Origin: Nitrosopumilus sp.
GTDB lineage: Archaea > Thermoproteota > Nitrososphaeria > Nitrososphaerales > Nitrosopumilaceae
DNA length: 64,000 nucleotides
Direction of reading: 5' to 3'
Assembly (NCBI GenBank): GCA_965214775.1
Contig: OZ243974.1
Span: forward strand, 1,536,001 to 1,600,000
In this document: piece after piece, positions 10,637 through 50,768 of the stretch
Layout: each line of letters starts with the position of its first letter
Numbering within the stretch: the stretch's first letter is position 1
Made by a program: the position numbers and the translations under genes
The notes under the pieces: generated by a model
Database searches by the model: none
The model's input: only the letters and a program-made list of their open reading frames with translations
What the model was told of the DNA's origin: nothing

Positions 10637-10992
10637 GAATATACCACCACACACTGGAGAGAAGCAAGAGTCGAAAGTCAATCATCTTCAAGGTCCATGT
10701 GGATGACAGGTTTGGCAAACAGAGGATAAACCAGGCCCTACTGTCCGGTTGGCGCGCCAAACTTGCAGAAAAGCGCCTGTTTTTTGACAAGGATGACTGG
10801 GACGACGACGTTGCTCGAAAGTTTGTCGGAATTATGGTTCTAAAGATTGCCCGTGATGAGTATCAAGGGACACATTTTCTCAATAATGTGGATGCTGAGA
10901 GCAACATGGAGATTCATTTCTGGGCATACCAGTTTCTGTCAAACAAAAAGGCATCACACGCGTGGAAGATCCTAAACGGTGATATCCAGTGA
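10633..10992 (+). CDS. Small accessory protein of the DUF499 operon (positional equivalent of DUF3780)
   Basis: Overlaps both neighbours by 4 bp; family assignment is positional only. Confidence 0.55.
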   Translation: MRIYHHTLERSKSRKSIIFKVHVDDRFGKQRINQALLSGWRAKLAEKRLFFDKDDWDDDVARKFVGIMVLKIARDEYQGTHFLNNVDAESNMEIHFWAYQFLSNKKASHAWKILNGDIQ

Positions 10993-16600: not shown

Positions 16601-16699
16601 ATACAAAACCCGGCATCGAAATTCCACGGCCACATAGAAAAAATTCCAGCCAAGCAGTTCAGATGGGTGATCCATGACTGGAAAGAGAGATCTACCTAG
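13607..16699 (+). CDS. SNF2-family helicase with C-terminal DUF3883 (PD-(D/E)XK) nuclease
   Basis: ADEVGLGKT, VVDEAH, LTATP, EGIDMQ, QRMGRIHRIGQ; C-terminal GYDVVS..IEVKS..EW..YWLYVV. Confidence 0.9.
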   Translation: MEVGSSVRTPDGTGTITGMDARSAKVQTGTGSKWYELDTLDMIYDPIAKMCKKQIDDCLQFATGIDAHRLYTEYRFNPYVLAASTKIKIFPHQINEVMWGLENPRIMIADEVGLGKTIIAALIVSELRARGTAKRLLFVVPKSLQIKWKIELEQRFDIPTKILNSEYVKNNPEPFEGEFSFVASMDYLKQEHIISRLNEEIDVVVVDEAHKMKKGTSRLKLGEHLASKTDTMILLTATPHDGRDEDFMARMNMLDSFVSDIRTASYLWTRTTKEDVVDIEGKKVFPDRTSKTVDIALLNKERDVIKLLEGYFDHIQSNVKTPREENMIRFLRHIYRKRASSSLHSLGISLRRRIDKLGTADTDIESALTKLDYDYSEDIEFEDIEGYEGFTISDVEREKEMLTEITKHLEQIGCDSKLDHLRRFIKTLKEDRPDAKLVLFTEYRDTLDYLAASLDYEIGKIDGTMSITERQDELEKFKKSDGYEVMLCTDAAGEGIDMQFCNVEINYDLPWNPNRLEQRMGRIHRIGQDQNVFYYNFVVDSKSSIDGYIMQKLLEKIEQIKAAMGDKVYDVVGSLIGSEEFGRYYDELRKIPRDQWEPKIAVLMSAIEAMRYDVLEKRKMLLEGNRLDSTKLEDIQKIRNTAIVIDEVKRFLQVFVETNGGRMNRIDSDKELYSIRLSERHSKELGLGEIVGTFDGTTAEKESYEYLALGNHSIEKILRKAASDHVASLGHESQEGVLCIYKITITDGQAKQRDSKIIAIFEQSDGVIYQVDERSVWTYKQSDREVNIDFATSASKRIETIASSMAQKQKESIDRKLREIKKKTKTARNGYYAKKISDIKVRMGELQQNDDGPHVERIIDERKRKIKTLEKQADIEYQKLDRQFNTATRIDLIGIAQVTADDGADIRIRIDEAGMKAVLESERKRAPDEHAVKQLEDCSKKNCGYDVVSFDRKIEVKSHKKSGSIMLTDHEWKTAERLQDEYWLYVVEYVFENPHITAIQNPASKFHGHIEKIPAKQFRWVIHDWKERST

Positions 16700-29362: not shown

Positions 29363-29436
29363 GCTTCGATAGCTCAGCCTGGTAGAGCGTTACCTTGGTA
29401 AGGTAAAGGTCACGGGTCCGGATCCCGTTCGAAGCT
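29363..29436 (+). tRNA. tRNA-Thr(GGU)
   Basis: GCTTCGA/TCGAAGC acceptor, D-arm GCTCAGCCTGGTAGAGC, anticodon TTACC-TT-GGT-AA-GGTAA. Confidence 0.92.
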
Positions 29437-33139: not shown

Positions 33140-34636
33140 TCAGGCGATCTCGAGCCGGTCGTCGATGCTGACCCTTCTGACATTGCCGTGCAGTTTGTGG
33201 AATTCGCCGGCCTTTTCGGTGTGTATCGGGATCAGCGTATTTGGCGAGGAGCCGTCGATGACGTCCTTGATCTGGTCGCGCGTGCCGTGTCCCGAAACGT
33301 GGGCAGTCGTCCACGACTTGTCACTGGATAGCAGACCAAAGTGGATCAGCCAGCGCTTGACGCGATCCTGGTCCAGCTTCATCTCGTCGTTGAATGGTTC
33401 TGTGGATGACCGGACATAGCCGGATCCCTCCTCTGGTCTCACGTCTATGAGGTTCTGCAGCTGAAAGTCCGAGCAGTAGAAGATGAATTTTTTCTGATCC
33501 TTTCTGACGTCCCTGTAATCCACATAGTTAGGATAGTCCAGAAACTCGCGCTCCCATCCCCTGTAGTCTGCCTGGATCTGGCTCTCCGGCCAGACATTCC
33601 TGTCCTTGTCCAGCAGTCCCCACGACTTTCTGGAGACGAACACCTTGATGTTGGGATCCGTCGGTGCGGGGTACTCGCCCTTCCACTCGTCTGATGTCTG
33701 GAACAGCTTTAGCAGGTAGGCCTGCTTTGTGTCTATCACCAGGTCGCGCCCCGTGGCCTTGGCGGCATTATAGAATGACACCATCCTGTCCAGATCCCTC
33801 GTGGGATATGTGCAGACGACCATCTTCTCGGTCCGGTTGATCACGTCAGTCACGTCCTCCTCTACCTTGAACTCGGTGACACTGTCGCTCTTGTCTATCC
33901 TCGTGCCCTCGCACAGCAGATAGTCCATGTCCTCGTCACCGCATCTGTCCACGAATTTCTGGCTGTATTTTTTACGTCTCCCGTGGAACCTGATGTCTGC
34001 AGTATACCCGATGCTGCCCTCGGACGTGTGTATTATGAACCCGTAGACGCCCGGCAGCGAGTGATCTATGGGGATGGATTCTACTGAGATCGAGTCAAGA
34101 TTCAGCTGCCTTGATGGGCCGATCGTCTTTATGTTCCTCGGAGTCTCCTCCCTGTGCTTGTCTGACTTTGCCCTGCTTATCCCTCCTCTGCTGTTCTCGT
34201 ACGTCCTAAAGTTCTCCTTGTACGTGATGTACTCCTCGCCCCCGCCCGTGTCCTGGAAGCACTGCATGATCAGTTTGCTTGCATCCGAGCAGTACACGGG
34301 GATCTCCGGCCTCAGGTAGTGTATGTAGGCGCAGTGATCCACGTGGGCATGGGACAGCAGAACCCCGTCTATCGACGTCTCCTGGCCGTGATCCCCGTAT
34401 TCCATGTGCCTAGAATAGTCCCTGCGGTAGATCCCCTTGATGTCAGGCAGAAGATTGAACTCGAACATGTCCCCCATGCCTGTAAGCTTTCTGGGGTTGG
34501 CAAACTCTGCAAAGTATTCGTTTACCTTGCCCATCTGCATCCCAAAGTCAAGGAACACCTTGGTCCCCTTGTCCTCGAGAAGTATCTTGGTTCCACCGAT
34601 CTCGTCGACTCCCCCGTAGAATGTAAGTGACGTCAC
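33140..34636 (-). CDS. Metallo-beta-lactamase/beta-CASP nuclease (RNase J-like)
   Basis: FYGGVDEIGG, LDFG, SHAHVDH, DHS, YTADIRFHG, HVSGH, IPIHTE. Confidence 0.85.
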   Translation of the reverse strand: MTSLTFYGGVDEIGGTKILLEDKGTKVFLDFGMQMGKVNEYFAEFANPRKLTGMGDMFEFNLLPDIKGIYRRDYSRHMEYGDHGQETSIDGVLLSHAHVDHCAYIHYLRPEIPVYCSDASKLIMQCFQDTGGGEEYITYKENFRTYENSRGGISRAKSDKHREETPRNIKTIGPSRQLNLDSISVESIPIDHSLPGVYGFIIHTSEGSIGYTADIRFHGRRKKYSQKFVDRCGDEDMDYLLCEGTRIDKSDSVTEFKVEEDVTDVINRTEKMVVCTYPTRDLDRMVSFYNAAKATGRDLVIDTKQAYLLKLFQTSDEWKGEYPAPTDPNIKVFVSRKSWGLLDKDRNVWPESQIQADYRGWEREFLDYPNYVDYRDVRKDQKKFIFYCSDFQLQNLIDVRPEEGSGYVRSSTEPFNDEMKLDQDRVKRWLIHFGLLSSDKSWTTAHVSGHGTRDQIKDVIDGSSPNTLIPIHTEKAGEFHKLHGNVRRVSIDDRLEIA

Positions 34637-36163: not shown

Positions 36164-36479
36164 CTGCAGGGGTATCTGAATCAATACGGAGTCCACGGAT
36201 GCGCGGATTTTATGTGTTTGTGAGCGGGATCCGGACGGTATTGCATGAACGCCACGTTTGCTATAGCTAAGCGAAAAGTATCCCGGATCTGACGTCAGAG
36301 TGGGGTTGGACTCCCTGACATGATAAACCGTCATACCTTCATGGGAGATGATGATCCGAAATCAGAAACTGCAAATGCCCGGATTTTTCTGTACATTTGC
36401 CAAGTAACTTACAGATGACTCGTCATTTGCAAGTCATGAAGCCTTTCTGCCGGGACGCAGCAGACTGTCTGAATCAAAA

Positions 36480-37030
36480 ACCAAATCACTACAACAGTCT
36501 TCACAGAAATACCACATCAGATTGTCCCAGGCTAGAAACAACTCAGATACTCAGATGAGGTCGCCTGCAGATCCGCATGCTCTCTCCTGTACCGCCGCGA
36601 GTCGGTCACTTTTAGGAAGGCTGGATCCGCACGATACACCATGGTCATCACAAAGAGAAGGAAAAAACGGTCAGATAGGATCAGGGAGGAGGAGCTACCT
36701 GCACAAGAACGGCTCATCGGATTTGCAACCGGCGTGCCCGGAATAGATCCTGACGGGTACAGCCGCAGGTAGGGATCGAGACAGGATACCGGATGATAGA
36801 GAGCGCAAGGATTAGGATCCACAGCAAGAGCTAGGTCGCAAGGATGCCGTACTTTGTGTACTCTGGCAGTCTTCAATGCGTGGGTCATGGCAAACGCGAT
36901 GATGAGGTACATGACGGGGATCAGTACCGAGGATCCCCTGATCACCCAGCAGTGTCTCAAGGACGTGATCAAGCTCAACATAACAGACTGTAGGATGATG
37001 CCCCAGCCCCCTCCGCCAGCGCCTCCCTGA
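36480..37030 (+). pseudogene. Degraded ISH3/IS4-type transposase fragment
   Basis: Reads IGFATG..YSRR*[frameshift]IETGYRMIE..AVFNAWVMAN, matching the YxxRWGIETGYR motif. Confidence 0.65.
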
Positions 37031-37094
37031 GTTACTTCTGGGAAGACTGCCAACACACAAATATATTTAACATGCATCTATTCCTAAAAATCAG

Positions 37095-37955
37095 ATGAGT
37101 CATGATTTAAATATCAACATCAACATTGATGAAATCCTAGGCGATGTACCTGCACAATACCTGCCAATTGATAAGCTGATTACGGGAAAGAATCAGGCCA
37201 GACAATCCAAAGTGAAGGTGAGTGAAGATTCAAAACTAGTTGATCAGATTAGAAAGGTCGGCGGACTGCTGCAACCAATTATCGTAAAAAAACTCAAAGA
37301 TGAAACCTATGAGATAATTGTAGGCCAAAGGCGTACTGGAGCATATCGTATACTAAGTAAGGAAGATGACAAATTCAAAAAAATCAAGGCATATGTAATA
37401 ACAAAGGATCTATCACAAGATGAGATTAAGGTCATATCGTTCATAGAAAACTATGGGCGTGATGACATGGACAAAGCGGATTATGTAAACGTCATAGAAT
37501 ATTTTTATCAAAAATATGGAAAGATAGCAGGTGCTGCCAAGGCTTTAGGAATATCACCAAATGATGCCAAAAAATACCTCACTCATGCAAGACTGAGTGA
37601 CAAAGTAAAGGAATGTATTGCTAGAAAAGAGTTCACTATAGACACTGCAATGAAGGCTCTAAAGGCGCTAGGTGACGACGAGGACTCTGTGGATGAGGAC
37701 ATGTTAATTGAAACGGCAAGAGAGTTGAAAAAACTCAAACCAGCTAAACGGAATAAGGTAGTCAAAAAGATGCAGAGTGGTACACCATTGAAAACTGCAA
37801 TAAAGATCCAGCAATCCACCACAACATTAAACATAGATATAACAGATGATCAGTTGGACAGACTTGAGACATATAAGAGCAAGTATGGTTACGAAAACAA
37901 AGAAGATGCCGCCACTGAAGCACTTGATGTGGCTTTACTGCAAGATTTGACGTAA
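37095..37955 (+). CDS. ParB-like protein (CTPase fold + HTH + C-terminal RHH-like)
   Basis: NQAR, GLLQPIIV, YEIIVGQRR, ENYGR; HTH AAKALGIS. Confidence 0.85.
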   Translation: MSHDLNININIDEILGDVPAQYLPIDKLITGKNQARQSKVKVSEDSKLVDQIRKVGGLLQPIIVKKLKDETYEIIVGQRRTGAYRILSKEDDKFKKIKAYVITKDLSQDEIKVISFIENYGRDDMDKADYVNVIEYFYQKYGKIAGAAKALGISPNDAKKYLTHARLSDKVKECIARKEFTIDTAMKALKALGDDEDSVDEDMLIETARELKKLKPAKRNKVVKKMQSGTPLKTAIKIQQSTTTLNIDITDDQLDRLETYKSKYGYENKEDAATEALDVALLQDLT

Positions 37956-37971
37956 AGGGAACACGGCCACA

Positions 37972-38706
37972 ATGGGTATTTTTAATGATCCAAAAAGACT
38001 GGCTAAATTATTAATGTGCTTCAAGGTTCACGAAAGTGCCCGTCCACTGTCCCCTATAGCGGTAGCAGAATGGCTAAAAGAGGCGGAGGATGAATTGGGC
38101 AATGCACAGGATGTCATGAAACGGGTGGGTATAGAGAAATTCATGTGGGATGGGTTCAGAACACTACTATCGATACATGGGGAGTTTAAAGATCAGGTGA
38201 AATGGGGGGCAAGTAACCCAAGGACGATGCAGATTGGAATGAGTGCGGCCAGAGTCATAGGCACTTTTAAGCCTGAAGACCAGAACATATTGATTGGATC
38301 CATGTGGGACTATGGAACACCGTTTGGGTATGAGGAACTCAGAAGGATAAAAGCATGCTACACATCAGAATCACTGACACTGCCAGAGGCAATCAAAAAG
38401 ATTATGAAGTCAGATCGCATACAGCGAACGGTTATCTTTATGTTCATTTCTGGACTGGATGAGAGTATAAGAGACAACCTTTCCAGAGAATCGGATAAAA
38501 GGGGCATTCCACTAAACGACCTGACCAAACAAATTCTATCGGAACATCTTCCAGAGAACTCAATCACGAGTGTAAAAATACTTCAAAACGCAATCAGAAT
38601 TGTATTTACGGAAAATGGAAAAAAAGAGTTTGACAAACTAATAAAGTCAGAATCGATCAACAAGAACGACATGGTGAATCACATGTTGAAAGCCGGGGGG
38701 TTTTAA
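37972..38706 (+). CDS. ParB/KorB-type HTH protein lacking the CTPase domain, with RHH-like segment
   Basis: LSPIAVAEWL..VMKRVG..LLSI..IGMSAARVI..EDQ resembles the ParB central domain; LDESIRDNLSRES..GIPLNDLTKQIL resembles RHH. Confidence 0.55.
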   Translation: MGIFNDPKRLAKLLMCFKVHESARPLSPIAVAEWLKEAEDELGNAQDVMKRVGIEKFMWDGFRTLLSIHGEFKDQVKWGASNPRTMQIGMSAARVIGTFKPEDQNILIGSMWDYGTPFGYEELRRIKACYTSESLTLPEAIKKIMKSDRIQRTVIFMFISGLDESIRDNLSRESDKRGIPLNDLTKQILSEHLPENSITSVKILQNAIRIVFTENGKKEFDKLIKSESINKNDMVNHMLKAGGF

Positions 38707-38709
38707 ACA

Positions 38710-39768
38710 ATGTCTGATATAAACGCGTCAGTAACGCAGGACGGTGCTATATTATTGGGAAAACTGTTCTCATGTGATGGTCATGTGTATGGCAGAGGAC
38801 ATTTTGTATTTTCCCACATGCATTCGGATCATACAGACAAGCTGTCAAAATGCCTCCACAACGGAAAAATATACCTGTCAAAACCAACCCGTGATCTGTT
38901 AGAGGCAATCAATGATGAAAACTATGGAAGTGATCCACAAATGATAAAGAGAAGCCAGATAGAAATTTTGGATTTTGGACGTAAAAAAATCGTAAACCAT
39001 GACGACGTGACGGAAATATTGACACTGCATGAGTCAAACCATGTTCTTGGTGCAAGCCAGGTGGAGGTAATCACAAAGGAGGGACAAAAAATAGTGTATT
39101 CGGGAGATATCACCAATTCGGACCAACCGCTAAAGGATATAAACACGCTAGTTCTTGACGCCACACATGGTCATCCCCAATATTCCAAATACTCTGACAA
39201 AGAAAGTGTCGAAAGGCGATTCATAGATAAAATTGACGAGGTCATTCATAATGACAGGGCTCAGCCGGTGGTCATTCACGCACATCAGGGCAAGCTGCAG
39301 GAAATCATGTCCTTGATTTCAAATCATAGCGAGTTTAATGATTTTCCACTACACACATCCTCAAAAAGCATACGCATATCCAAGGTATACCAAAAATATG
39401 ACTTTAATATAAGAGATGATCTTGTAGATGAAAAGTCGGACGAGGCAGAGACGGCAAGAGAGAGCGGATGGCCATACATACAATGTACGTCACATTTTAG
39501 CAAAAAAACCTATGAGATCAATGGAAAGGCATATTCGATTTTTGTATATGATTCACTTCCAGACGGTTCCCAGATAAATGAAAACGAAAACAGTACGTCA
39601 TTTTCTACCACATCCCATGCGGATTTTGATAATATAATCAAATATGTTCAAAATGCCTGCCCTAAATTCATAATTGTAGACTCGACAAGAACTAACCAAT
39701 ACAAGTCGCTAGTCAAGGAACTTCGTGATAGGGGATTCAACGTACAATATCAGCCAAAAAGGAAATGA
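38710..39768 (+). CDS. Metallo-beta-lactamase-fold nuclease (beta-CASP/SNM1-like)
   Basis: SHMHSDH, NHVLGA, YSGD, LDAT, SHADF. Confidence 0.82.
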   Translation: MSDINASVTQDGAILLGKLFSCDGHVYGRGHFVFSHMHSDHTDKLSKCLHNGKIYLSKPTRDLLEAINDENYGSDPQMIKRSQIEILDFGRKKIVNHDDVTEILTLHESNHVLGASQVEVITKEGQKIVYSGDITNSDQPLKDINTLVLDATHGHPQYSKYSDKESVERRFIDKIDEVIHNDRAQPVVIHAHQGKLQEIMSLISNHSEFNDFPLHTSSKSIRISKVYQKYDFNIRDDLVDEKSDEAETARESGWPYIQCTSHFSKKTYEINGKAYSIFVYDSLPDGSQINENENSTSFSTTSHADFDNIIKYVQNACPKFIIVDSTRTNQYKSLVKELRDRGFNVQYQPKRK

Positions 39769-39769
39769 T

Positions 39770-41035
39770 ATGAAACTCAATAATACACAAGTTGGGATAT
39801 TCTGGGATATTGTTTCATACGTCAAAAACAATAACATCAATTCTTCAAATATAGACACGATCAGTGATTCACCATCATTGAAGGCATGGGCAAACGTTCT
39901 AAAGGCACTGTGCAATTCTCAAAAAATCAGCATCACAAATCAGGATGCAAAATCCCATGTACTGGACATAATAGTACAATTCCTTAATACCGCTACTAGA
40001 AACAATCGCTCAAAATTGGCGAAAATATTAGATGATTTTATGTATTACTTGGAAAATGAAAAAAAATGGCTGTATTATTTTGTTCCAATATACAATCTTG
40101 ACTTTGATGGAAACGAGCTGGAAATTGATAAATTTATGAAGATTAGAAAGATATCAGATGAGCAGAAATCTTATCTGAGGGCAGAATATGAGGGATTTGC
40201 ACCAATCAGGGTGAATGTGGGCAAGATCCGACACATCTTTGTAGTTCGCGTAGAGAGGAACGATACAGATCCAGCAAGAACCATACGTAATAGGGTTGAT
40301 GTGGTTCTGAACAAGTTTAGATTGCTCAAATCAGGAGATATAGTTGCAGGCGGACTGTACTGTTTTGAGAAAAGCGAGAACTGGAACCCTTATGGTAAGA
40401 TAGACAAGATAAACCCAGAACCTACGGGCATAGTGTCATCTAACATGTATGTATTGACAGAATCCCACAGGGAGAAGTTTCTCAGTCTACTGTGTGTGAT
40501 AAACAACAGGTATCCGGTAGCAAAAGGTGGTGATTATTCAAAGAAATATGGTGATTATTTTGAAAAAACAATACAAAGATTCAACGAGTCGCTTTTAGAA
40601 CGAAATGTCAATTTTAGGATGGTGTACTTGGTACTTACACTTGAGGTGCTTCTCGTATCAAGTCCCGGAGACAATACAAGTAAGATATCGCAGAGAACTG
40701 CGCTGTTCATAGGTAGAAACGATGATGAAAAAAAGAAAATATGGGAACACATGAGACAGTTCTATAATTTTCGCAGCGGCCAGATACATGAGTATGTTGA
40801 ACGAACCATAAAGGTGGATTCCAAGACAATTCCGATCAAAAAGGCAACTGCCATGTTAGAGACATGGACAAGGAGGTCAATCCTGCAGATGATATTTTTC
40901 AGTCAGGAAAAAGATACGCTCCAGTTTGACAAGGTGGAACTGTGTAAGAGTATAGAGACATCAATGTTTGATAGGACACTCAACTCTAGGTTTTCCACAC
41001 TGCATAAAAAAATACTAAATCAGATCAATTTTTGA
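39770..41035 (+). CDS. ApeA-like HEPN-domain protein (putative RNase effector)
   Basis: LTLEVLL..ISQRTALFIG..FYNFRSGQIH (Rx4H). Confidence 0.72.
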   Translation: MKLNNTQVGIFWDIVSYVKNNNINSSNIDTISDSPSLKAWANVLKALCNSQKISITNQDAKSHVLDIIVQFLNTATRNNRSKLAKILDDFMYYLENEKKWLYYFVPIYNLDFDGNELEIDKFMKIRKISDEQKSYLRAEYEGFAPIRVNVGKIRHIFVVRVERNDTDPARTIRNRVDVVLNKFRLLKSGDIVAGGLYCFEKSENWNPYGKIDKINPEPTGIVSSNMYVLTESHREKFLSLLCVINNRYPVAKGGDYSKKYGDYFEKTIQRFNESLLERNVNFRMVYLVLTLEVLLVSSPGDNTSKISQRTALFIGRNDDEKKKIWEHMRQFYNFRSGQIHEYVERTIKVDSKTIPIKKATAMLETWTRRSILQMIFFSQEKDTLQFDKVELCKSIETSMFDRTLNSRFSTLHKKILNQINF

Positions 41036-41959
41036 GGTCGCATGGTTTGCCACAATCAATGTTTTGTGACTGACGGATGTAAGCCGGGCATTCGTGATTT
41101 TTATCATGGTGCCTGGTTGTAGTTTCTTCTCCATCGAATGTTCTAGTATGAGGGGTGTTGATTTCAAAGTTTTGTCTACAAGAACAAACTTGTTTACCGA
41201 CTGTTTTGATTTGTTCTTTTCTAGCATCCCGTAGATGTTGAATTTTTTACTCTTTGCACAAAAGAACTTTGCCTGTACTATTTTGTCAAAAAAGTCCTTG
41301 TGTTCATGCTTTATTTTAACAGCACTTCCGTTGACCCAACGATGCAAAAGATTACAGGTTCTTGGATCTGCATTCTTGTTTCCGACCTTGCAGGTGTCCT
41401 CATAAGCACAATTCATACAGGGATTGTCCATCAATGACTCAAACTGGGAATTTATGTGGGGCTTCTCAATGTATTCAGTCAGCATCCAGGCATTTTCACT
41501 ATCAGAATATTTTATCAAACCATCATGTTCAAGTTTTAAAAGATCTAATCCCTTGAATTTGTCAGTCAATATTTTTCCTGAAACCGGCTGATTCTCACAC
41601 AAGAACTTTAGTGCGTATTGTTCCATGTGCATGGTGAAATGACTTCTAATATTGGCATTGCCGGTGATCAGTTTGAGACATACCCTACATCGCATCTCGT
41701 TTTTGTCCCTCTGTGCCTTTACCACCCCTGACATATTATCAAACTCCTCAAACTCATCATTTGACTCGTCATCTGACATGGTATTGATGACATCAAACTC
41801 ATCATTTGACTCGTCATCTGACATGGTATTGATGACATCAAACTCATCATTTGACTCGTCATCTGACATGGTATTGATGACATCAAACTCATCATTTGAC
41901 TCGTCATCTGACATGGTATTGATGACATCAAACTCATCATTTGACTCGTCATCTGACAT
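41015..41959 (-). CDS. Chimeric protein: acidic repeats + C2H2 finger + wH/4-Cys (TFE-beta/RPC34-like) + OB-fold
   Basis: CRVC-x12-HFTMH; PCMNCAYEDTC..PRTCNLLHRWV; C-terminal LVDKT..LQPGTMIKITNAR. Confidence 0.6.
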   Translation of the reverse strand: MSDDESNDEFDVINTMSDDESNDEFDVINTMSDDESNDEFDVINTMSDDESNDEFDVINTMSDDESNDEFEEFDNMSGVVKAQRDKNEMRCRVCLKLITGNANIRSHFTMHMEQYALKFLCENQPVSGKILTDKFKGLDLLKLEHDGLIKYSDSENAWMLTEYIEKPHINSQFESLMDNPCMNCAYEDTCKVGNKNADPRTCNLLHRWVNGSAVKIKHEHKDFFDKIVQAKFFCAKSKKFNIYGMLEKNKSKQSVNKFVLVDKTLKSTPLILEHSMEKKLQPGTMIKITNARLTSVSHKTLIVANHATSKIDLI

Positions 41960-41971
41960 GGTATTGATGAC
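41748..41971. repeat. 45-bp perfect tandem repeat x5 (encodes MSDDESNDEFDVINT)
   Basis: tcaaactcatcatttgactcgtcatctgacatggtattgatgaca at 41748, 41793, 41838, 41883, 41928. Confidence 0.95.
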
Positions 41972-42003
41972 GGGGTTGTCGCCTAATAGTCTTTATGCGT
42001 AAT

Positions 42004-42081
42004 AGACCTTATGCGTATTTGCCAAAAATGACGTAAAAGCTGCCTAACTTTTTTGATCTGAACCGATTACGCAAAAGGTCT
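42004..42081. mobile_element. MITE family C (IS5-end derived), copy 1
   Basis: AGACCTTATGCGTA..CGATTACGCAAAAGGTCT with 3-bp TSD AAT; abuts a truncated IS5 end at 41988-42003. Confidence 0.8.
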
Positions 42082-43285
42082 AATATTTTTCAAGCTGATT
42101 GTTCTTCGACATGCTGATCTTTGCGATATTCTTTATCACTGATATGATTTCATCTGTCGCAAACTTAATTTCCTCTTCTGTGTTAAATCTGCCACATCCG
42201 ATCCTAATTGATTCATGTGCTTGCTCTGATGTCAATCCAAGTGCTAGGAGGACGTGCGAGGGCTCTACTGCTTGGGTCGTGCATGCAGAGCCTGCAGAGA
42301 TGGCCAGCCTCTTGGATACGGAGTTGATGATGGCCTTGCCCTCGATTCCGTCAAATCTGACATTGAGGTTGTGTGCAAGCCTATTCGTGGGATGCCCGTT
42401 TTGAATCCCGCCAATCTCCGCAAACCTGTCCAGCATCTGCCTTGTCCAGCTCCTGAACCTGTTGTTTTCCTGCTCCATCTCGCTGTTGGCAATCTCCAAG
42501 GCCTTTGCAAAGCCCACGATTCCGGGAACGTTTAGGGTGCCAGAGCGGATGCCTCTCTCCTGCCCACCTCCATGCATTATCGAATCCAGTCTTACGCGCG
42601 GCATGACTCCTCTTGCATAAAGCGCGCCAATTCCCTTGGGTCCGTAAATCTTGTGGGAGGAAAACGACATCAGATCAACATTGAGCCTTTGCACATCGAT
42701 ATCCATGTGGCCGACGGCCTGGGCCGCATCTGTATGAAACAGCACGTTATTGTCGTGCGCTATCTTGCCGATCTCTGCAATGTCTGCAATCGTTCCAATC
42801 TCATTATTTGCAAACATCACCGAAATCAGGACTGTCTTGTCCGTTATCGCGTCATTTACTGCCTTGGGATCAATCATGCCAAATTCGTCAACGGGCAGGT
42901 ATGTCACATCCATGCCCTGGTCCTCAAGACGTCTTGCCGTATCTAGGACTGCCTTGTGTTCTGTAACGCACGTGATTAGGTGGTTCCCACGATCCGCATT
43001 CTTTGTCATGACGCCGCACAGTGCAAGGTTGTCTGATTCCGTGGCACCTGACGTGAATATGATCTCATCCATGTGTGCGTTAATTGCACGGCCGATCTTC
43101 TCACGGGATGCCTGGACAACCTGTGATGCGTCATGGCCATACGAGTGATCCAGGCTTGACGCATTCCCAAACACCTGCGTAAAATACGGGATCATCTCGT
43201 CTAGGACGCGCGGGTCCACCGGCGTAGTTGCATGCGAGTCCAGATAGACGGGTTGACCGGATTTGGCCTCGGAGAAAGACTGCAT
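42080..43285 (-). CDS. dndA: Cysteine desulfurase DndA (IscS-like)
   Basis: YLDSHATTP, HTDAAQ, SSHKIYGPKG, SAGSACT; last gene of the dnd operon. Confidence 0.9.
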   Translation of the reverse strand: MQSFSEAKSGQPVYLDSHATTPVDPRVLDEMIPYFTQVFGNASSLDHSYGHDASQVVQASREKIGRAINAHMDEIIFTSGATESDNLALCGVMTKNADRGNHLITCVTEHKAVLDTARRLEDQGMDVTYLPVDEFGMIDPKAVNDAITDKTVLISVMFANNEIGTIADIAEIGKIAHDNNVLFHTDAAQAVGHMDIDVQRLNVDLMSFSSHKIYGPKGIGALYARGVMPRVRLDSIMHGGGQERGIRSGTLNVPGIVGFAKALEIANSEMEQENNRFRSWTRQMLDRFAEIGGIQNGHPTNRLAHNLNVRFDGIEGKAIINSVSKRLAISAGSACTTQAVEPSHVLLALGLTSEQAHESIRIGCGRFNTEEEIKFATDEIISVIKNIAKISMSKNNQLEKY

Positions 43286-43286
43286 T

Positions 43287-43706
43287 TTATCCGTCCGCAA
43301 GTCGGAACTTGCCGGGATTCATCTCCCTGACGAATCCGTATACGTCAGAGAGGCCGTCGATCCTCTGTTTTAGCGATATGGCCCCCCGGTTGAGATGGGC
43401 CCTGGTCATCTCTCCGAGATACGTCTCCGGATCCAGTCCGTCCTGGTTTAGGCGGTTGATCATGAGTGCAAGGTACATGTTTTCATCTCCGGCAAACAGT
43501 CTTGCCGGTTCAAACTCGCTGCCCTTCTTGTTGTATTCGTCAGGATTGGGAATTCCCCTCTGCTTTATGGACAGGCACAGGGACAGGCGGGCCCAGGCCT
43601 CCGGTTCCACGGCAGTGCTGTACCTGAGCATGCCAAACAGATGAGTCGTGCGCGAGCTTGCCCTGATGTTCTCAAACTGCAACCTAGCTGCCTCCCCTGC
43701 TCCCAA
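43287..43706 (-). CDS. dndE: DNA phosphorothioation protein DndE
   Basis: WARLSLCLSI..RAHLNRG; size and position between dndD and dndA; real start may be the TTG at 43682. Confidence 0.85.
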   Translation of the reverse strand: MGAGEAARLQFENIRASSRTTHLFGMLRYSTAVEPEAWARLSLCLSIKQRGIPNPDEYNKKGSEFEPARLFAGDENMYLALMINRLNQDGLDPETYLGEMTRAHLNRGAISLKQRIDGLSDVYGFVREMNPGKFRLADG

Positions 43707-45696
43707 AGTATCCGTCGTTTACAACGCTCGTGTCGCTACTGGGATCATACTGGATAAGCATGGCCTGTGAGACATGCGGCCTTATCATCTCATAGTACGA
43801 GTCCACGACCTCGGTGTTTGTGGAAAATATGATTATCTGGTGTGATGCCTCTGGGTAAAAGTTGCGGATCAGGTTCTCCCTGTGCTCCACATCCAGCCTG
43901 GCAAGCGGTGTATCCACTATCAGTGGCAGCGGGCGTCCTGACGTCTTGGCCAGCCCCCATACGATTGCAGTCACGTACAGCTGGAGCTCGCCCTGCGACA
44001 GGGTGTCCCTAGAGATCTCGTCCTCCCTGCTGTATAGCGTGATCCTGTATGTCTGGGGATCAATTGAGACTGACGTGATGAGCCTTGACTTATGGAAGCA
44101 CCTTTTGATCCCCTCCAGTATGTTGGATTCCAGCAGCGTGATCTTTTTTGCCCGCAGCCTGGCAGAGTACTCCTCTAGAGCATCCTGTATCCTCGGGGCC
44201 AGCTCCAGTCCCAACTGGTTTCGGTGGCTGGATCTTTTCGCTGCAAGGTGCTTTCGTATCTTGCTGTTTAGCAGGACTATTTTGGATTTTTCCTGCGCCT
44301 CTAGCACCTCCAGCGTATGGCATTCCTGCTCCATCTCCCCTATCTCAAGGGTGATCTCCTTGATACTCGAATACAGGGGACCCACCTCGTCTTGCTGTGG
44401 GGCGATGTCCAACTGCGCAGATATCCCGTCTAGCCGGTCTGCATATTGTTTTTGACTCTTGTGATATACAGACAAGTGCTCGTGTTCCTGATCCAGTATC
44501 CTGTCAATCCTTTGCCTCATTGCCGCCATCTCGGACAGCGAAAAGTCAAAGGTGAGGCGTCTCTTGTCAGACAGCGAGCTTGTCCTTGCATCTGCAATGT
44601 CCCTGAGCCTTTTTACCAGCGCCTTTTTGGTCTCCGGGTCGTCCAGCTCTAGGTGCGCCTCAAACTCTCCTATCATATGGTCATAGGCTGCCCTCACCGT
44701 ATCGCCTGAAAGGTTGGATTTTATGCTGTCCTCGTCCTCTTGGAGTTTTTCTCTGACCTGCCTTATCTGATCTGGCACTATTGCAAGCGGCAGGTCTTTT
44801 TTGATCATGTCTCTTATTTGGGATTCCACAAAATTGAGGGACTTTGAAATCTCATCTCTCTCATTTACCAGCCTTTTCCGGTCTTTTGCATGGCTGCCAC
44901 CCGCCTTGAAGAACTGCTCCTCTTTTCCATCCAGTTCCTTTTTCTTGCGGGAGATGTCGTCGGTCAAAAATGTGTGCTTTTGCTGCATATCCTCCAGCCT
45001 TCTTTCGGCCTCGTCCTTCTCCCTGTTCATCTCCTCGATCCTTGCAAGTACTTCCTTGTCCTCCTCGCCCGAGTTTCGCAGTATGTGCGTGCCGATGTCA
45101 TCCCGGAGCCGGTCGGATATGTCAAGTCCCAGCAGGCTGTCAAAGGACGACTTGATGTAAAGGTGCTCATCGCCTTCCTCTACAATGTCCTTGATTCTTT
45201 CCCCGTCAAAGAAGAACATGCCTGCCACCGCCCTAGGGATCATCTGGTTTATCATCATCTGGATCTGGGAGTCACCCACGGCCTCCACCCTGACGTATCC
45301 CTTGCCTGCATCAGACTGCTTGTACATGGCCAGAAACTCGTCAATACGGCCGTCATTGTTCTGCCAGTTTCGGGTTATCTTGTACTGGAGGATCCTTCCA
45401 TTCTGCGCATATTCAAACTCCAGCGATACGGAGGCCTCCCCGGCCTGGGTCTTTTTGTGCTTGTGCCTGTGAAAGAGCCGTCTGATCTTCTGGTTATACT
45501 GTTTTTTTGTCATCTTTTCATCCATACTGCTCTGTCCGTACAGGCACAGGGGGATCGCCTCAAAGAGGGTAGACTTGCCGGCGCCGTTGGTCCCGCCATA
45601 CAGAACAATGGGCCTCTCAGACGTGGTAGGAAACTCGAACTCGTTGTGCCCCCCGTAGGCGCCAACGTCATCAAGTATCAGCCTAGTTAAACGCAT
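43684..45696 (-). CDS. dndD: DNA phosphorothioation SMC-like ATPase DndD
   Basis: GTNGAGKST, FFFDGERI, coiled coil, LSQGE, IVDTPLARLD..HR, ASHQIIIFST. Confidence 0.93.
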   Translation of the reverse strand: MRLTRLILDDVGAYGGHNEFEFPTTSERPIVLYGGTNGAGKSTLFEAIPLCLYGQSSMDEKMTKKQYNQKIRRLFHRHKHKKTQAGEASVSLEFEYAQNGRILQYKITRNWQNNDGRIDEFLAMYKQSDAGKGYVRVEAVGDSQIQMMINQMIPRAVAGMFFFDGERIKDIVEEGDEHLYIKSSFDSLLGLDISDRLRDDIGTHILRNSGEEDKEVLARIEEMNREKDEAERRLEDMQQKHTFLTDDISRKKKELDGKEEQFFKAGGSHAKDRKRLVNERDEISKSLNFVESQIRDMIKKDLPLAIVPDQIRQVREKLQEDEDSIKSNLSGDTVRAAYDHMIGEFEAHLELDDPETKKALVKRLRDIADARTSSLSDKRRLTFDFSLSEMAAMRQRIDRILDQEHEHLSVYHKSQKQYADRLDGISAQLDIAPQQDEVGPLYSSIKEITLEIGEMEQECHTLEVLEAQEKSKIVLLNSKIRKHLAAKRSSHRNQLGLELAPRIQDALEEYSARLRAKKITLLESNILEGIKRCFHKSRLITSVSIDPQTYRITLYSREDEISRDTLSQGELQLYVTAIVWGLAKTSGRPLPLIVDTPLARLDVEHRENLIRNFYPEASHQIIIFSTNTEVVDSYYEMIRPHVSQAMLIQYDPSSDTSVVNDGYFGSRGGS

Positions 45697-47107
45697 TTGG
45701 CCTCACCCTTTCCTCCGCATCCCTGTGCTCGAACAGCTCTGCCCTTATCTCGTCGATGTCTTCTCTCCACTCCTTTGCAAGCTCCTTTTTGATCCTCTCA
45801 AATATCTTGGAGTGCGTCGAGCCCGTCTGCAGCTCCACCTCGGCATTTAGCAGGCTGCTTACGATCTTGTACGGAACCTTGTGCTTGGTGCAGACCTGCT
45901 CAAGCAGTGCCTGCTCGTCGTGACCAAATCCCCCCGTGTCGTCAGTGACGGATTCCAGCTGGATTCCCGTTATATCATGGTAAATCCCGTATGCCGTGTT
46001 CTGCCAGTCGCCGTTTTCCATTCTCCAGATGCGCTGTATCTCGTGTATCTCCTCTTCGGAAATCAGGACCATGTCAGGATCATGCTTCTGTATCTTGACC
46101 TGGCCGTTTAGCAGCTTTTGTAGATACTCCTTTCTAAAGTCAAGCGTGTATGGGCCCGGCGTATAGTCGGATCCGTCGTTTTTCAGATCCACCCGACCGT
46201 TTCTGCGCGTTATCTGGCGTACCTTGGGCCATGTCTCGGGATTCTGTGTAAGCTTTAGCTCGTGGCGCAGCTCGGCTAGTGGCTCCATCCATTCCTGACC
46301 GTTCTCAATCATGCTGTCAAGCGACTTTTGCTTGTCCACCACGGTGCAAGTCCAGCAGCCAAACCTGCCGCTGCCGCACGACGGCGTGCTGGTATCTACC
46401 ACGAGGGGGCACTCTGAGGCGTTGGCGTCCTGGTACAGGGCCAGAAGATCCCTGTTGTTGTCCCCCCATGGATTCCTGTTTTGCAGCAGATAGTTCCAGA
46501 CGTCGTCGGTCTCAAAGTCCACCAGGGGGGTATACACGTACGTCTGGGCAAATTTCTTGTGGTGACTCAAAACGCTGTTTTCAATCTCCAGCAGGTTCAT
46601 GCTCTGCTGCCGGGTAGAGCTCTCGCTTTTGCGGGTTCCCAGCAGCACTATGACCTCGCCGTACTCGGATACCTTGTTTTTGATAAAGCGGTCGGCGTTT
46701 GCAATCTTGAGCATGTCGGTACACCACCTAAACATTGAGGTGGGCGCTGGGTATCCGAGGCCGAGAATCCTGACCCAGAACGTGTCGGTAATGGGGGGTC
46801 TCAGGAGGTTGGTCGATATCGGAATGGATGACTTTTTTGCGGCCTTTTCCATCTTGTCCAGCGACGTGGTTATGCGCTCTACGATCTGTGGCGACTCTAC
46901 CAAGGTATCAGAGGATACGACATAGATCTTTTTATCCAGTTTTTCTGCAGGTAGTGCGGATAGAGCCCCCCAGACAAGCTGCACCATGCAGGTCGAGTCC
47001 TTTCCCCCGCTGAATCCCAAAACCCACGGGCGGGAATCGTTGAGGTATACAGTGCGAATCTCCTCGTATATCTTCTCAAGTGGTTTTGAGTCAAACACGG
47101 AAGTCAT
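45683..47107 (-). CDS. dndC: DNA phosphorothioation sulfurtransferase DndC
   Basis: WVLGFSGGKDS, DTLVE, GYPAP..FRWCT, ECPLVVD..SCGSGRFGCWTCT. Confidence 0.95.
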   Translation of the reverse strand: MTSVFDSKPLEKIYEEIRTVYLNDSRPWVLGFSGGKDSTCMVQLVWGALSALPAEKLDKKIYVVSSDTLVESPQIVERITTSLDKMEKAAKKSSIPISTNLLRPPITDTFWVRILGLGYPAPTSMFRWCTDMLKIANADRFIKNKVSEYGEVIVLLGTRKSESSTRQQSMNLLEIENSVLSHHKKFAQTYVYTPLVDFETDDVWNYLLQNRNPWGDNNRDLLALYQDANASECPLVVDTSTPSCGSGRFGCWTCTVVDKQKSLDSMIENGQEWMEPLAELRHELKLTQNPETWPKVRQITRRNGRVDLKNDGSDYTPGPYTLDFRKEYLQKLLNGQVKIQKHDPDMVLISEEEIHEIQRIWRMENGDWQNTAYGIYHDITGIQLESVTDDTGGFGHDEQALLEQVCTKHKVPYKIVSSLLNAEVELQTGSTHSKIFERIKKELAKEWREDIDEIRAELFEHRDAEERVRPNAFN

Positions 47108-48186
47108 TTCTCATACTGCCCCAGTGCCTTTGGTATCTTAGCTCCGCATTCCCTAAGTATGGCGCATGCTCCCAGCGCGATCCCGATGGTCGTACGAACC
47201 ATCTTTTTTCCTTGTATGAGGTTGCCGTCCCACATGGGGTTTGTGCGTGACCAGTCGATTTTTGACAGGGGTCGGAGCCTTCTTTTCCAGCTGTCCGGAT
47301 ACTGCTTGATTATCTCCTTTCCTGCCATTCCAAGCGAGTTCATGCAGTTCGTATGTGCGTTGACATAGTTGGCCCTCAGCTCATCCGGGGATATGTCGCC
47401 CTTGATCAGCATTTGCCACTCTGGAAGATTCTCAGATACAGTCTTCCAAAATTCCAGGATTGTCTCCTTTTGCTCCTTGCTGGGACGTCGTACTGATTCC
47501 TTGCCAAGGAGCTTCCTGGTGGCATCGGATATCCCTCCAAGTGTAAAGACCTCCTTGGCATGTCTTCCTATGGTTGTTTTTTCAAGCTCAACCCTGTCTC
47601 GGAATATCTCTAGGCTCTCTGTCATTTCCACAACGAACTGGGAATATTTATCACGGTTATCGTACAAAATGTTAAGTGATTTTGATGGCTTTACTGCGTT
47701 TTTGTTCAGGTCTGCAAACATCTGCTGGGAGCGTTTTAGCCCCGAGTCCTCAAAGAACACCACCGATATCGACTCGCCTCCAAGCTCGGGCCTTTCCTTG
47801 AGTGCCTCTTCTATTGCCTTGCGCCTGTGCTGGCCGTCGTTTATGAGCAGTCGCGACTCCATGTCAATGAGCAATTTGCCCATCTTGCCGTCAGGACCCA
47901 GATGCTGTGCAGGAATGAACTTCATGTTTCCGTCAACTGATGCCGTTAGCGACGAAAAGATGTACTCGTCTGGATTGCTCAGAATATAGTCCTTGAGGGC
48001 TGGAATCCTAGATTCTCGCAGCGTCCTTTGGGCCCGTATCTTTGCAGGAATCTCATGTTCATTGAATATGAATAGTTTCGGGATTGTCTTCATCGGGCAC
48101 ACTGCTACATAGTATACGCGGTTGGCCTGGACTCCGCGAATGGCATCAAAACTGTAATTTACCGAGCCTGCCTCAGATTCGCTCAT
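47104..48186 (-). CDS. dndB: DNA sulfur modification protein DndB
   Basis: AIRGVQA, RAQRTL, YIFSSLTAS, NDGQHR, QQMFADLN. Confidence 0.93.
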   Translation of the reverse strand: MSESEAGSVNYSFDAIRGVQANRVYYVAVCPMKTIPKLFIFNEHEIPAKIRAQRTLRESRIPALKDYILSNPDEYIFSSLTASVDGNMKFIPAQHLGPDGKMGKLLIDMESRLLINDGQHRRKAIEEALKERPELGGESISVVFFEDSGLKRSQQMFADLNKNAVKPSKSLNILYDNRDKYSQFVVEMTESLEIFRDRVELEKTTIGRHAKEVFTLGGISDATRKLLGKESVRRPSKEQKETILEFWKTVSENLPEWQMLIKGDISPDELRANYVNAHTNCMNSLGMAGKEIIKQYPDSWKRRLRPLSKIDWSRTNPMWDGNLIQGKKMVRTTIGIALGACAILRECGAKIPKALGQYEK

Positions 48187-48759: not shown

Positions 48760-50604
48760 CTATGATGCTCCCAATTCGAGTAGTTTTGTCTGAACACTGT
48801 CCTCCGTTTGTTTTATGATGAACTTTCTAGAATCGAGTATGGGTGGCAACAATCTGGCGCCTTTCTGTTTTAGTACATACATGATGTCGTATGGATTTGG
48901 CATGTCACCTTCATGTCCGCCTTCCTTTATCTTTTTTAGAAGACTCTCAGGCCACGTTTCATGCCGATTCAGATTAAAACTTTTCATGAACACATCATAA
49001 GCGGCTTCGGCAATGCTTAAAAATAGGTCCGGTGTGGGATCATTTTTTTTAAGATTTGAGAATTTGTCTATCATTTTGTCTTTTATTTGCCGTCTGTTTT
49101 TATCGTCAATCCCAATCATGGATTCGTAGATGAATCTTAGAATGTAATACTTTACAATGTCCTTACTGATGATGCCTTTTTTCCTCGATATCTCATCTGA
49201 TTGGTTGCTACTTAATTCCTTACACCATCTTCGATGCAATGCATCAAGCATTTGCATAAAGATGTGCGGTACGATAAGCTCCTCAATCTTTCTATTTTTG
49301 AAGATTTTGTAATAATAGCTATCGTCACTTGCCACAGAAAACAAAACTTTGTCGGACATCATTGCCTCATTGGGATCTAATGAATACGCACAATAGGCTC
49401 TTGCAACTGCACTCTTATCCAGTATGCGTCTGCTAGTCACACGAGACCGTGTGGATTTTTTGGCAGCTCCAAACCCCTTCGACTGTCGTTCAAAATAAAA
49501 ATTATTGAACTTGTTTTTACACTGTAGCATTAATTCTGTCATCTCTGGATAATTTGTCACCAGATCTGCCGGTTTGATTGGGTTTTGGGTATTTGTTGCC
49601 TCGCTGATTCGATTACGTTCTATGTCGTCTACTGTTTCATGTATGGTTAGCAGCAAAAACACATCATCTATGGGGTAAGTAGAATTCTCTAACGTGTATG
49701 TCGTCTGTCTTCCGTTTACTACTTTGAAGTTGTCTACCTTGTATGTTCGAGAATCTTCTGTGGCACTAAAATTAGTACAAGTGGCAGTAATGCCGTTGTT
49801 TAACTTCCAGAAATCGCTTCTTGCGAGCTTATCTTGAAGCGTATTAAGAATAGCCTTGTGAGTGGGTGCTGAGCTGCCAAGCGTTTGTCTAGGATTTTCC
49901 AAAAATATCATCTCCTTGTAATCCTTAGTGATTTTAACCAGATCTTTAGCATTTATGTGTCCTATGAGTGATTGTTTTTTTGTTATCTCAGATGTTCGTG
50001 TTATTATATCTCCATCAAACTTGATTTTTAGCGGCGGAGTGTGAGGAATGGTCATGCGTGATAAAATTCCATCTAGATCCAGAATCTCAAGATCTATGTT
50101 GGGATCGTTTCCAAGTCTTTCTTTTTTCCATTTGGGATCATTAACGAGTTCTTGAGCTTGTTCGTTTAGTCTTCCTGTCACTGCAAAGATCATCCTTTTC
50201 CTAATACGCGGATATTGTCTTTCCATCATGATGAATTCTGTGGATTTTTGCTTGAATGTCAGATTTGCCTGCTTTGGACAATCTGTGAGATAGGCTAGCG
50301 TACTTACAAATGATTCGATCTCTTCTCTGTTTACAATATGATTTAGATCTTCGCTAAATTTTGTCTGGATCCAGCATATGTATTGTTCGGTGACATCCCC
50401 GTTGTCGTCAGCATGAAAAATATCAATTCCATAATCGTTTTTCCCACCAATCGACACTACTTCGTCAATTTTGCCTTCATCTGAAATACCTAGTATGTTT
50501 TGACATATCCATCTTGGAAAGGCATCATATTTTGCTACACCTGTTTGCTCACAGATATGTTGGATCTGCTCATTGAACTGGGTTTTGCTGGCGTCTGATG
50601 TCAT
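48760..50604 (-). CDS. AIPR-family protein with N-terminal restriction-endonuclease-like domain
   Basis: ENPRQTLG, FWKLNNGIT, VVNGRQT, ATNTQNPIKPADL; N-terminal DYGID..IQTK. Confidence 0.88.
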   Translation of the reverse strand: MTSDASKTQFNEQIQHICEQTGVAKYDAFPRWICQNILGISDEGKIDEVVSIGGKNDYGIDIFHADDNGDVTEQYICWIQTKFSEDLNHIVNREEIESFVSTLAYLTDCPKQANLTFKQKSTEFIMMERQYPRIRKRMIFAVTGRLNEQAQELVNDPKWKKERLGNDPNIDLEILDLDGILSRMTIPHTPPLKIKFDGDIITRTSEITKKQSLIGHINAKDLVKITKDYKEMIFLENPRQTLGSSAPTHKAILNTLQDKLARSDFWKLNNGITATCTNFSATEDSRTYKVDNFKVVNGRQTTYTLENSTYPIDDVFLLLTIHETVDDIERNRISEATNTQNPIKPADLVTNYPEMTELMLQCKNKFNNFYFERQSKGFGAAKKSTRSRVTSRRILDKSAVARAYCAYSLDPNEAMMSDKVLFSVASDDSYYYKIFKNRKIEELIVPHIFMQMLDALHRRWCKELSSNQSDEISRKKGIISKDIVKYYILRFIYESMIGIDDKNRRQIKDKMIDKFSNLKKNDPTPDLFLSIAEAAYDVFMKSFNLNRHETWPESLLKKIKEGGHEGDMPNPYDIMYVLKQKGARLLPPILDSRKFIIKQTEDSVQTKLLELGAS

Positions 50605-50768
50605 TTCATTAAAAGGATGTATTTGCATTTTTATAATCTTTTCATGCTGATCGGTCTTTTGGACTGCACCAAGGGGGGGGATCCCTACCCACCTATCTTT
50701 TCAGAGTGGCATCTTAGGCAGACATCTCCTGTTTCATCTTCGATTTCGGATGGGCAAATTAGGGGCAA

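Follow-up and report, generated by a model that had tools for sequence, protein, structure and literature searches.

The closest described systems are DndI (in IscS-DndBCDE-DndI) and SspE (in SspABCD-SspE), in which, according to the accessible text, a nucleoside triphosphatase (NTPase) of the ParB superfamily is coupled to a nuclease and DNA phosphorothioation (PT) is sensed (PMC11662687). The classical DndFGH restriction arm is missing from most PT-modification operons, which leaves open what serves as reader of the mark in such genomes; the main text of Rakesh et al. 2024 presents nucleases encoded beside dnd genes (HKD-SF2, wHTH-SAD-HNH, restriction endonuclease (REase), URI, HEPN and PIN) as alternative restriction or back-up arms (PMC10853773). 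Here, a set of three genes is described from a window of 64,000 nucleotides (the whole stretch of DNA that was analysed, positions 1,536,001 to 1,600,000 of contig OZ243974.1), which is part of the complete 2.83-Mb genome of an ammonia-oxidising archaeon, Nitrosopumilus sp. Gene 1 encodes a ParB-like NTPase, gene 2 a truncated ParB paralogue lacking the cytidine triphosphatase (CTPase) region, and gene 3 a nuclease of the metallo-beta-lactamase (MBL)/beta-CASP type. Genes 1–3 are best explained as a conserved mobile module that forms a restriction or back-up effector arm of PT, a reading towards which the balance of probability leans slightly. In the window they are followed by a fourth gene and face a dnd operon:

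37095–37955, plus strand: gene 1 (core), 286 amino acids, a ParB-like NTPase without a ParA partner, with a ParB_N fold, a helix-turn-helix (HTH) and one carboxy-terminal ribbon-helix-helix (RHH)-like segment.
37972–38706, plus strand: gene 2 (core), 244 amino acids, a ParB paralogue cut at the amino-terminus, with a helix equivalent to Box III, a ParB HTH and a tandem RHH.
38710–39768, plus strand: gene 3 (core), 352 amino acids, an MBL/beta-CASP nuclease with a complete set of metal ligands.
39770–41035, plus strand: gene 4 (accessory), 421 amino acids counted from the ATG, HEPN-like, with an Rx4H motif.
42080–48186, minus strand: dndBCDEA operon, converging on the module; PADLOC matches to DndA-E have E-values from 3e-34 to 2e-181.
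47104–48186, minus strand: dndB (PADLOC).
45683–47107, minus strand: dndC (PADLOC).
43684–45696, minus strand: dndD (PADLOC).
43287–43706, minus strand: dndE (PADLOC).
42080–43300, minus strand: dndA (PADLOC).

An earlier note on this DNA, made from the sequence alone, had described four same-strand genes with gaps of 16, 3 and 1 bp, and the coordinates bear this out. It also had them converging on the dnd operon; the two do lie on opposite strands, but they are not direct neighbours, as an open reading frame (ORF) of 314 amino acids intervenes.

The module recurs well beyond the window. In total, 44 genome loci were collected, all through gene 2, from three sources. A search of 401 genomes belonging to the order gave 11 full-length matches (E<1e-44) in 8 genomes, each a member of the window's own family; a different family in the same phylum added one locus; and scanning GTDB with a degenerate DNA motif gave 32 matches, all of which were used, 31 of them bacterial and one archaeal. 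At least eight bacterial groups are represented, Chloroflexota, Poribacteria, Actinomycetota, Proteobacteria and Planctomycetota among them. The degenerate motif was used because broad alignments of gene 2 gave no conserved stretch for a pattern search; as a related peptide motif covers 13 of 153 proteins from the family search, the 32 motif-scan loci are a biased subset. In the order search, 110 of the 121 genomes with any match had just weak ones (E≥1e-21), which were not counted as gene 2; the 12 weak-match regions inspected contain ordinary ParB HTHs, a ParB fragment, or members of the sister pair family described below.

A ParB gene is located directly upstream of gene 2 in 43 of the 44 loci and a beta-CASP MBL gene directly downstream in 41. 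The conserved unit is genes 1–3, not all four: the HEPN-like gene 4 follows the core in just six loci, all among the 11 of the window's own family, and in none of the 32 motif-scan loci, so that the four-part system of the earlier note, in which ParB would license a DNase and an RNase, is not supported. No ParA Walker-A motif was found in any of the 44 loci (by a motif screen only), and the consistent pairing with ParA that would mark a partition module is therefore not seen. The window itself contains no ParA, as noted before, and the two AAA_31 matches in the genome are about 0.8 and 1.4 Mb away. Over the 38 loci where all three genes are intact, the patristic distances of genes 1–3 correlate with a rho of 0.85–0.87, which shows co-inheritance, not binding. 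A SNF2 ATPase is encoded upstream of the module in 23 of the 44 loci, and in metagenomes gene 2 adjoins gene 1 in seven of nine loci found through gene 1.

Several copies among the 44 loci are split by insertions or frameshifts. Five further own-family copies, all without gene 4, consist of one intact three-gene unit, one unit with its ParB split by an insertion, a ParB with a broken gene 2, a gene 2 with MBL remnants, and a lone gene 2. This patchy distribution and frequent decay by insertion agree with a defence gene set. At two loci, L147 and L086, an insertion splits gene 1 or gene 2 and yet leaves the MBL gene undamaged, which, in just these cases, fits activation of the nuclease better than antitoxin control. 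Two genomes, G700 (L064 and L065) and G703 (L066 and L068), each contain two divergent copies of the module, each copy by its own dnd or ssp operon.

Of all the signals found, the link to dnd, only an aside in the earlier note, is the strongest. Dnd, Ssp or Pbe genes, in varying order and orientation, are present in the flanks of 33 of the 44 loci, the flanks being mostly 7–10 kb a side and shorter in four loci. DNA methyltransferases, by contrast, are present in just 4 of the 44, including the Dam-like gene of the window and a ParB-methyltransferase fusion; for this control, 192 unclustered ORFs of at least 230 amino acids (and three others) were compared with PADLOC at E≤1e-20, and a motif screen was added. 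The bias towards PT over methylation-based restriction-modification (RM) is seen across archaea and bacteria, as are the gene order, the NTPase and nuclease residues and the absence of ParA. Five of the 11 remaining loci have PT-flavoured neighbours: a PP-loop gene with IscS (L085 and L094), a PAPS-reductase-like gene (L101), the PT-binding REase NF045808 (L086), and DndD/E-like genes recognised by eye (L105).

The same association is found between genomes. Among 121 family genomes taken as one sample, 28 have DndC and 10 have a full-length gene 2; all 10 carriers have DndC, and none of the 93 DndC-negative genomes has gene 2. In four of the carriers, gene 2 and DndC are far apart or on different contigs. 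A naive hypergeometric test gives a p of 1e-7, and at genus level, where all six carrier genera fall within the 12 of 27 that have DndC, p is 0.003; both values overstate the association, given the lack of independence among related genomes and the larger genome size to which carriers tend.

Gene 1 matches PF02195 (ParB_N) in Pfam with an E-value of 2e-11, and the ParB motifs reported earlier (GLLQPI, GQRR and EN) are all present. Arg36 of Box I, Gly77-Gln78-Arg79-Arg80 of Box II, Ser115, Glu118 of Box III, and Asp129 are invariant in 42 of 42 module homologues, while Asn119 is kept in 40 of the 42. Nucleotide binding is likely to be under selection, given the invariance of Arg36, the GQRR motif and Glu118 in the 42 homologues; the nucleotide bound by ParB-fold proteins is not predictable from their sequence, according to the accessible text of a recent survey (10.1101/2025.10.10.680097). 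The chain appears to end in a single RHH-like segment, which is expected to dimerise. TIGR00180 scores 56.7 bits against gene 1, for a cut-off of 58.45, and one bacterial homologue passes with 71 bits. Gene 1 has no Pfam match at E≤1 to PF03235 (DUF262, GmrSD_N), the PF03235 genes of this genome being located at about 1.03 Mb. As to parS-like palindromes, no inverted repeats of 12 nt or more were found in the upstream stretch 36300–37200 (40900–42200 was the only other stretch examined). Two close homologues of gene 1 (L030 and L031) occur without genes 2–3, so the gene 1 clade is not wholly bound to the module.

The family of gene 2 is large and unnamed (335 clusters at E≤1e-10), and its proteins have 230–260 amino acids and the motif L-x-S-V-G-T-H-x3-R-P-L-x-P-x-E-V-A. 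Gene 2 had been described as resembling the HTH and central region of ParB with an RHH-like part and no CTPase, and family matches, profile alignment and fold comparison all agree. Gene 2 itself has no Pfam match; HTH_ParB is matched at E≤0.01 by 101 of the 136 aligned family members, and the 25 commonest of the 40 Pfam families listed for them do not include ParB_N. In a profile-profile alignment (hhalign), residues 8–181 of gene 2 align to residues 107–265 of gene 1 (probability 95%, E-value 4e-8); gene 2 starts at the Box III helix, without Boxes I and II, and the EN-x-x-R-x-D of Box III in gene 1 is replaced by S-V-G-T-H-x3-R-P-L. The predicted model of gene 2 has a predicted local distance difference test (pLDDT) score of 97. 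Its amino-terminal half can be superposed on the DNA-binding domains of Spo0J, ParB and KorB (Z 8.4–8.8, root-mean-square deviation 3.0–3.4, 108–113 aligned residues), and residues 154–244 resemble tandem-RHH folds, namely AvtR (Z 7.3), single-chain Arc (Z 6.8) and DndE (Z 5.4). Foldseek returned nothing at E≤0.001, the top matches being Noc and Spo0J at 0.03. The tandem RHH is probably self-contained, unlike the single segment of gene 1. At most four of the 136 family members match PADLOC, weakly and to one model. With the queries used, searches of PLSDB plasmids, INPHARED phages and IMG/VR confirmed no relative of either gene 1 or gene 2. The same genome contains another copy:

G000:C1:598805–599527 (L067): a second, orphan copy of gene 2.

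No ParB or MBL remnant was found within about 3 kb of it. Its island contains an AIPR gene, a pAgo and a ComEC-like MBL, and a PbeA homologue is located at 570996, about 26 kb away.

In gene 3, the HxHxDH motif noted earlier is invariant in 42 of 42 homologues: His36, His38, Asp40 and His41 are present in all, as are His111, Asp133, His303 and Asp324, with Asp23 in 41 of 42 and an aspartate or glutamate at position 150 in all 42. MBL motifs 1–4 and beta-CASP motifs A (D/E) and B (H) are thus all present. Profile matches include aCPSF1/FttA, Cas14, CPSF73, SNM1A (E-value 2e-15) and Artemis, the best PDB profile match having an E-value of 1e-25. Against TIGR04122 (ligase-associated exonuclease), gene 3 scores 44 bits (44–64 with homologues included), below the cut-off of 325, and PADLOC gives a single marginal match (E-value 0.004). 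In beta-CASP enzymes, motif C is a histidine in those acting on RNA and a valine in those acting on DNA; the corresponding region of gene 3 reads V/I-x-T/V-D-N-x-R, with the unusual invariant Asp324. No Pfam match to HNH (DUF1524) was found in genes 1–4. A fusion of genes 2 and 3 in L101 (582 amino acids) was considered as Rosetta-stone evidence and set aside, because its junction holds the ATGA overlap found in unfused copies; a single-base indel or an assembly error could explain it.

For gene 4, the Rx4H motif seen earlier stands: Glu292 and Arg335-x4-His340 are invariant in 7 of 7 homologues, and Rx4H is present in 21 of 22 wider relatives. Its label as ApeA does not stand beyond a lead, as neither gene 4 nor six homologues match the HEPN_Apea or ApeA_NTD1 profiles in Pfam and the Atlas neighbours carrying HEPN_Apea score just 0.87–0.89; HEPN-like is a fair label. 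Gene 4 has no match in Pfam, PADLOC, NCBIfam or PDB sequences. Its model, made from an alignment of four sequences, is poor (pLDDT 60), with matches at Z of about 5 only, including Csm6 and AbiV amid unrelated helical proteins. Gene 4 is present beside the module in two distinct metagenome contexts, and the order has about 20 other genomes with stand-alone relatives. The copies linked to the module fall into a single group (support 0.79) whose branching matches that of the core tree; one stand-alone sequence is nested in it. Gene 4 is a lineage-restricted, optional accessory, co-inherited where present.

In the arrangement that we propose, gene 1 would be an NTP-gated DNA clamp or switch. Gene 2 should not bind NTP through Boxes I and II and may be a reader or loader of DNA sites and an adaptor between gene 1 and the nuclease, because Boxes I and II are gone from it, the Box III helix and the HTH are retained, and the tandem RHH is probably self-contained. 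The beta-CASP enzyme would be off by default, and would cut or resect DNA once the ParB pair, presumably in a complex with it, reports a wrong PT state, be it invading DNA without the mark or, in the course of an infection, the disappearance of PT or of the Dnd proteins. The upstream SNF2 ATPase may provide translocation, and in the window's family a HEPN-like RNase would be added as an optional suicide or dormancy effector. A more detailed version can be offered tentatively, as a possibility: a Spo0J-type ParB and its CTPase-less paralogue would form an asymmetric sliding clamp, in which gene 2 gives its Box III helix in trans and reads PT via its DndE-like tandem RHH, the loaded clamp then activating the beta-CASP DNase; this would be a new class of PT-reading immune system, serving Dnd, Ssp and Pbe alike, with the sister pair family as another branch built to the same plan.

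Several observations weigh against genes 1–3 being an effector arm of PT. With a GC content of 39%, the module lies below both the genome (47%) and the dndBCDEA operon (52%); as module and operon differ, they have no long shared history here, and with a PbeA homologue about 1.0 Mb away, the dnd operon of this genome may not need to use the module. Genome G141, 99% complete, has an intact module and no match to DndC or SspD. Of the 10 genomes checked behind the PT-negative loci (completeness is known for one), seven, G141 included, have neither protein; in four of these seven, the module adjoins a PP-loop gene or a PT-binding REase. In five Chloroflexota loci, PT was called from a single PAPS-reductase gene of the SspD cluster, and in L008 from an SspC fragment. 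Carriers in the family tend to be larger (1.7–4.3 Mb) and to hold more defence genes of all kinds. Gene 2 occurs without gene 1 in three places (the second copy of this genome, G762, and G788, with MBL remnants), and the motif C region gives no substrate call for gene 3, for which DNA is the presumed substrate. Some of these points suit a module that acts against mobile genetic elements independently of PT, a ParB clamp that senses or coats foreign DNA, recruits the nuclease and shares islands with PT genes. Besides G141 and the GC mismatch with dnd, the other defence neighbours (UvrD-nuclease, PD-T4-4, pAgo, AIPR and Old/Gabija-like proteins) speak for it. It is nonetheless rather unlikely: a generic island resident should mostly adjoin RM methyltransferases, which were found in 4 loci as against 33 with PT genes, and gene 2 is missing from all 93 DndC-negative genomes of the family.

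Decidedly unlikely is a housekeeping role in PT, in which the ParB pair would find nicked or oxidatively broken PT sites, or stalled Dnd or Ssp intermediates, and an SNM1/Apollo-like nuclease would trim them for repair or PT turnover. The resemblance of gene 3 to DNA-repair beta-CASP enzymes (SNM1A, Artemis, TIGR04122), the tandem-RHH fold that the gene 2 carboxy-terminus shares with DndE, and a link that covers both Dnd and Ssp, with PT chemistry as the common feature, all suit this role; however, only 10 of the 28 DndC-positive family genomes carry the module, its decay is frequent, and a HEPN-like gene inherited together with the core in one lineage is easier to reconcile with conflict than with repair. 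HEPN genes are frequently toxins, and gene 4 could be one, together with the nuclease, if the module were an addiction and maintenance device in which a KorB/KorA-like clamp-lock pair silences or stabilises the PT island. Gene 2 indeed has two DNA-binding domains, and the ParB-fold clamps KorB, VirB and BisD are described as regulators of transcription in the accessible survey text (10.1101/2025.10.10.680097). Interruption of gene 1 or 2 nevertheless leaves the nuclease gene whole (L086, L147), the stretch upstream of gene 1 shows no inverted repeat of at least 12 nt, and placement and orientation relative to dnd vary, which makes such regulation very unlikely. That the genes are a ParABS-like partition cassette belonging to a plasmid or an integrated element, and their neighbours accidental, is extremely improbable and largely refuted. 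This would explain the ParB architecture of gene 1 and its near-threshold TIGR00180 score, but not the lack of a ParA Walker-A motif in all 44 loci, the lack of gene 2 relatives in PLSDB, INPHARED or IMG/VR with the queries used, or the fixed coupling to a nuclease.

Two further genes flank the module in the window:

41015–41959, minus strand: ORF of 314 amino acids, between gene 4 and dndA, outside the module.
33140–34636, minus strand: RNase J-like MBL gene (TIGR00649, E-value 4e-18), a non-core repeated neighbour of archaeal copies.

The former contains five 45-bp tandem repeats at the amino-terminus, encoding an acidic 15-mer, plus Cys/His clusters. Its relatives are located two genes downstream of the gene 1 homologues that lack genes 2–3 (L030 and L031); in L030, the gene in between encodes another kind of truncated ParB, which stems from the carboxy-terminal part of gene 1. 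The RNase J-like gene recurs at most a few kb from the module in four loci of archaea (the window, L007, L018 and L026), in either orientation. Elsewhere in the window are an ATPase/methyltransferase-like/SNF2-like cluster (7991–16699, read by eye), an AIPR-Mrr protein (48760–50628), a tRNA-Thr gene (29363–29436), and an ORF near 30.5–31.3 kb that we take to be amoC-like and that points to an ammonia oxidiser.

The sister pair family (L070–L076 and L079, all from genomes of the window's order) has the same arrangement, a GQRR ParB followed directly by a CTPase-less paralogue of 177–193 amino acids with one RHH-like tail, and no MBL. An SspD-like PP-loop gene lies within three genes in L070, L071, L072, L075 and L079 (for L070, PADLOC SspD with an E-value of 8e-34), is cut by the contig end in L073 and is farther off in L074; some pairs, such as L072, have a proteasome-subunit-like gene downstream. 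Beside the module in L085 (441–1775) and L094 (8088–9605), a divergent PP-loop protein (FSGGRSS) is followed directly by IscS; in these genomes, without a DndC or SspD match, the two possibly form an undescribed sulfur-transfer system. A block in Chloroflexota (L083, L089, L092, L110 and L113) consists of a HATPase/kinase-like protein (782 amino acids), an unknown protein of 688 amino acids, a PAPS reductase of the SspD cluster, SNF2 and the module. Finally, a conserved ORF of 90–93 amino acids without a family match follows the MBL gene in L085, L100 and L112, preceding dndB in the latter two.

The status of an uncatalogued, ParA-free set, as supposed in the earlier note, and the recurrence of the module are borne out by the neighbourhood search over the 44 loci and by the PADLOC scan. 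In PADLOC-DB 2.0.0, which lacks systems added after 2023 (DefenseFinder was not part of the scan), genes 1, 2 and 4 are unmatched, as are bacterial homologues. The module is unnamed in the literature searched, a search that reached few subscription journals. The main text of the dnd survey (PMC10853773) contains none of the terms "metallo", "lactamase" or "MBL" and uses ParB only for DndB-type proteins, while its supplement of dnd neighbourhoods may contain the module; in the accessible text of the ParB-fold survey (10.1101/2025.10.10.680097), "lactamase", "heterodimer" and "paralog" were not found; and the module is not described in the accessible parts of a BREX survey (PMC12839542), a HEPN survey (PMC3710099) and a preprint on ParA in immunity (10.64898/2026.10.19.760177).

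When compared with aCPSF1/FttA, the type VII CRISPR protein Cas14, SNM1A/Apollo/Artemis and TIGR04122, gene 3 shares the MBL core and motifs A and B. It differs in being a stand-alone enzyme of 340–360 amino acids with an invariant aspartate near motif C; it scores far under the TIGR04122 and Cas14 cut-offs, and neither a ligase operon nor a CRISPR core adjoins it. Like the orphan clamps Noc, KorB(-KorA), VirB and BisD, gene 1 combines a ParB-CTPase fold, an HTH and a carboxy-terminal dimerisation segment and has no ParA, but the accessible survey text presents none of these clamps as the partner of a nuclease and a paralogue lacking the CTPase (10.1101/2025.10.10.680097). Effector-ParAB, as far as the accessible text of the preprint describes it, likewise places ParB-related proteins in immunity, one of them predicted to be catalytically inactive; it is defined by ParA fused to effectors, whereas the module has no ParA (10.64898/2026.10.19.760177).

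The nearest parallel is with DndI and SspE, as described in the accessible text: in both cases a ParB-superfamily NTPase with a GQxR motif and a nuclease are encoded beside PT-modification genes. DndI and SspE are, however, single polypeptides of DUF262 and DUF1524 HNH; the module has neither domain and is not a member of that group, consisting instead of a Spo0J-type ParB_N-HTH-RHH NTPase, a second, truncated paralogue and a separate beta-CASP MBL (PMC11662687). It fits the proposal, in the main text of Rakesh et al. 2024, that other nucleases replace DndFGH, and gene 4 fits the HEPN back-up class named there (PMC10853773). The module is real and conserved, probably a PT-linked kind of effector with a new architecture, and a concrete three-gene candidate for the PT reader. 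Its range extends from archaea that oxidise ammonia to Actinomycetota and Proteobacteria, and some bacterial carriers, such as Ramlibacter (L105) and Kineococcus (L103), are in culture. If the proposed role is true, orphan archaeal ParB proteins would gain a function, the first ParB clamp with a dedicated CTPase-less partner would be at hand, and beta-CASP nucleases would join PT immunity.

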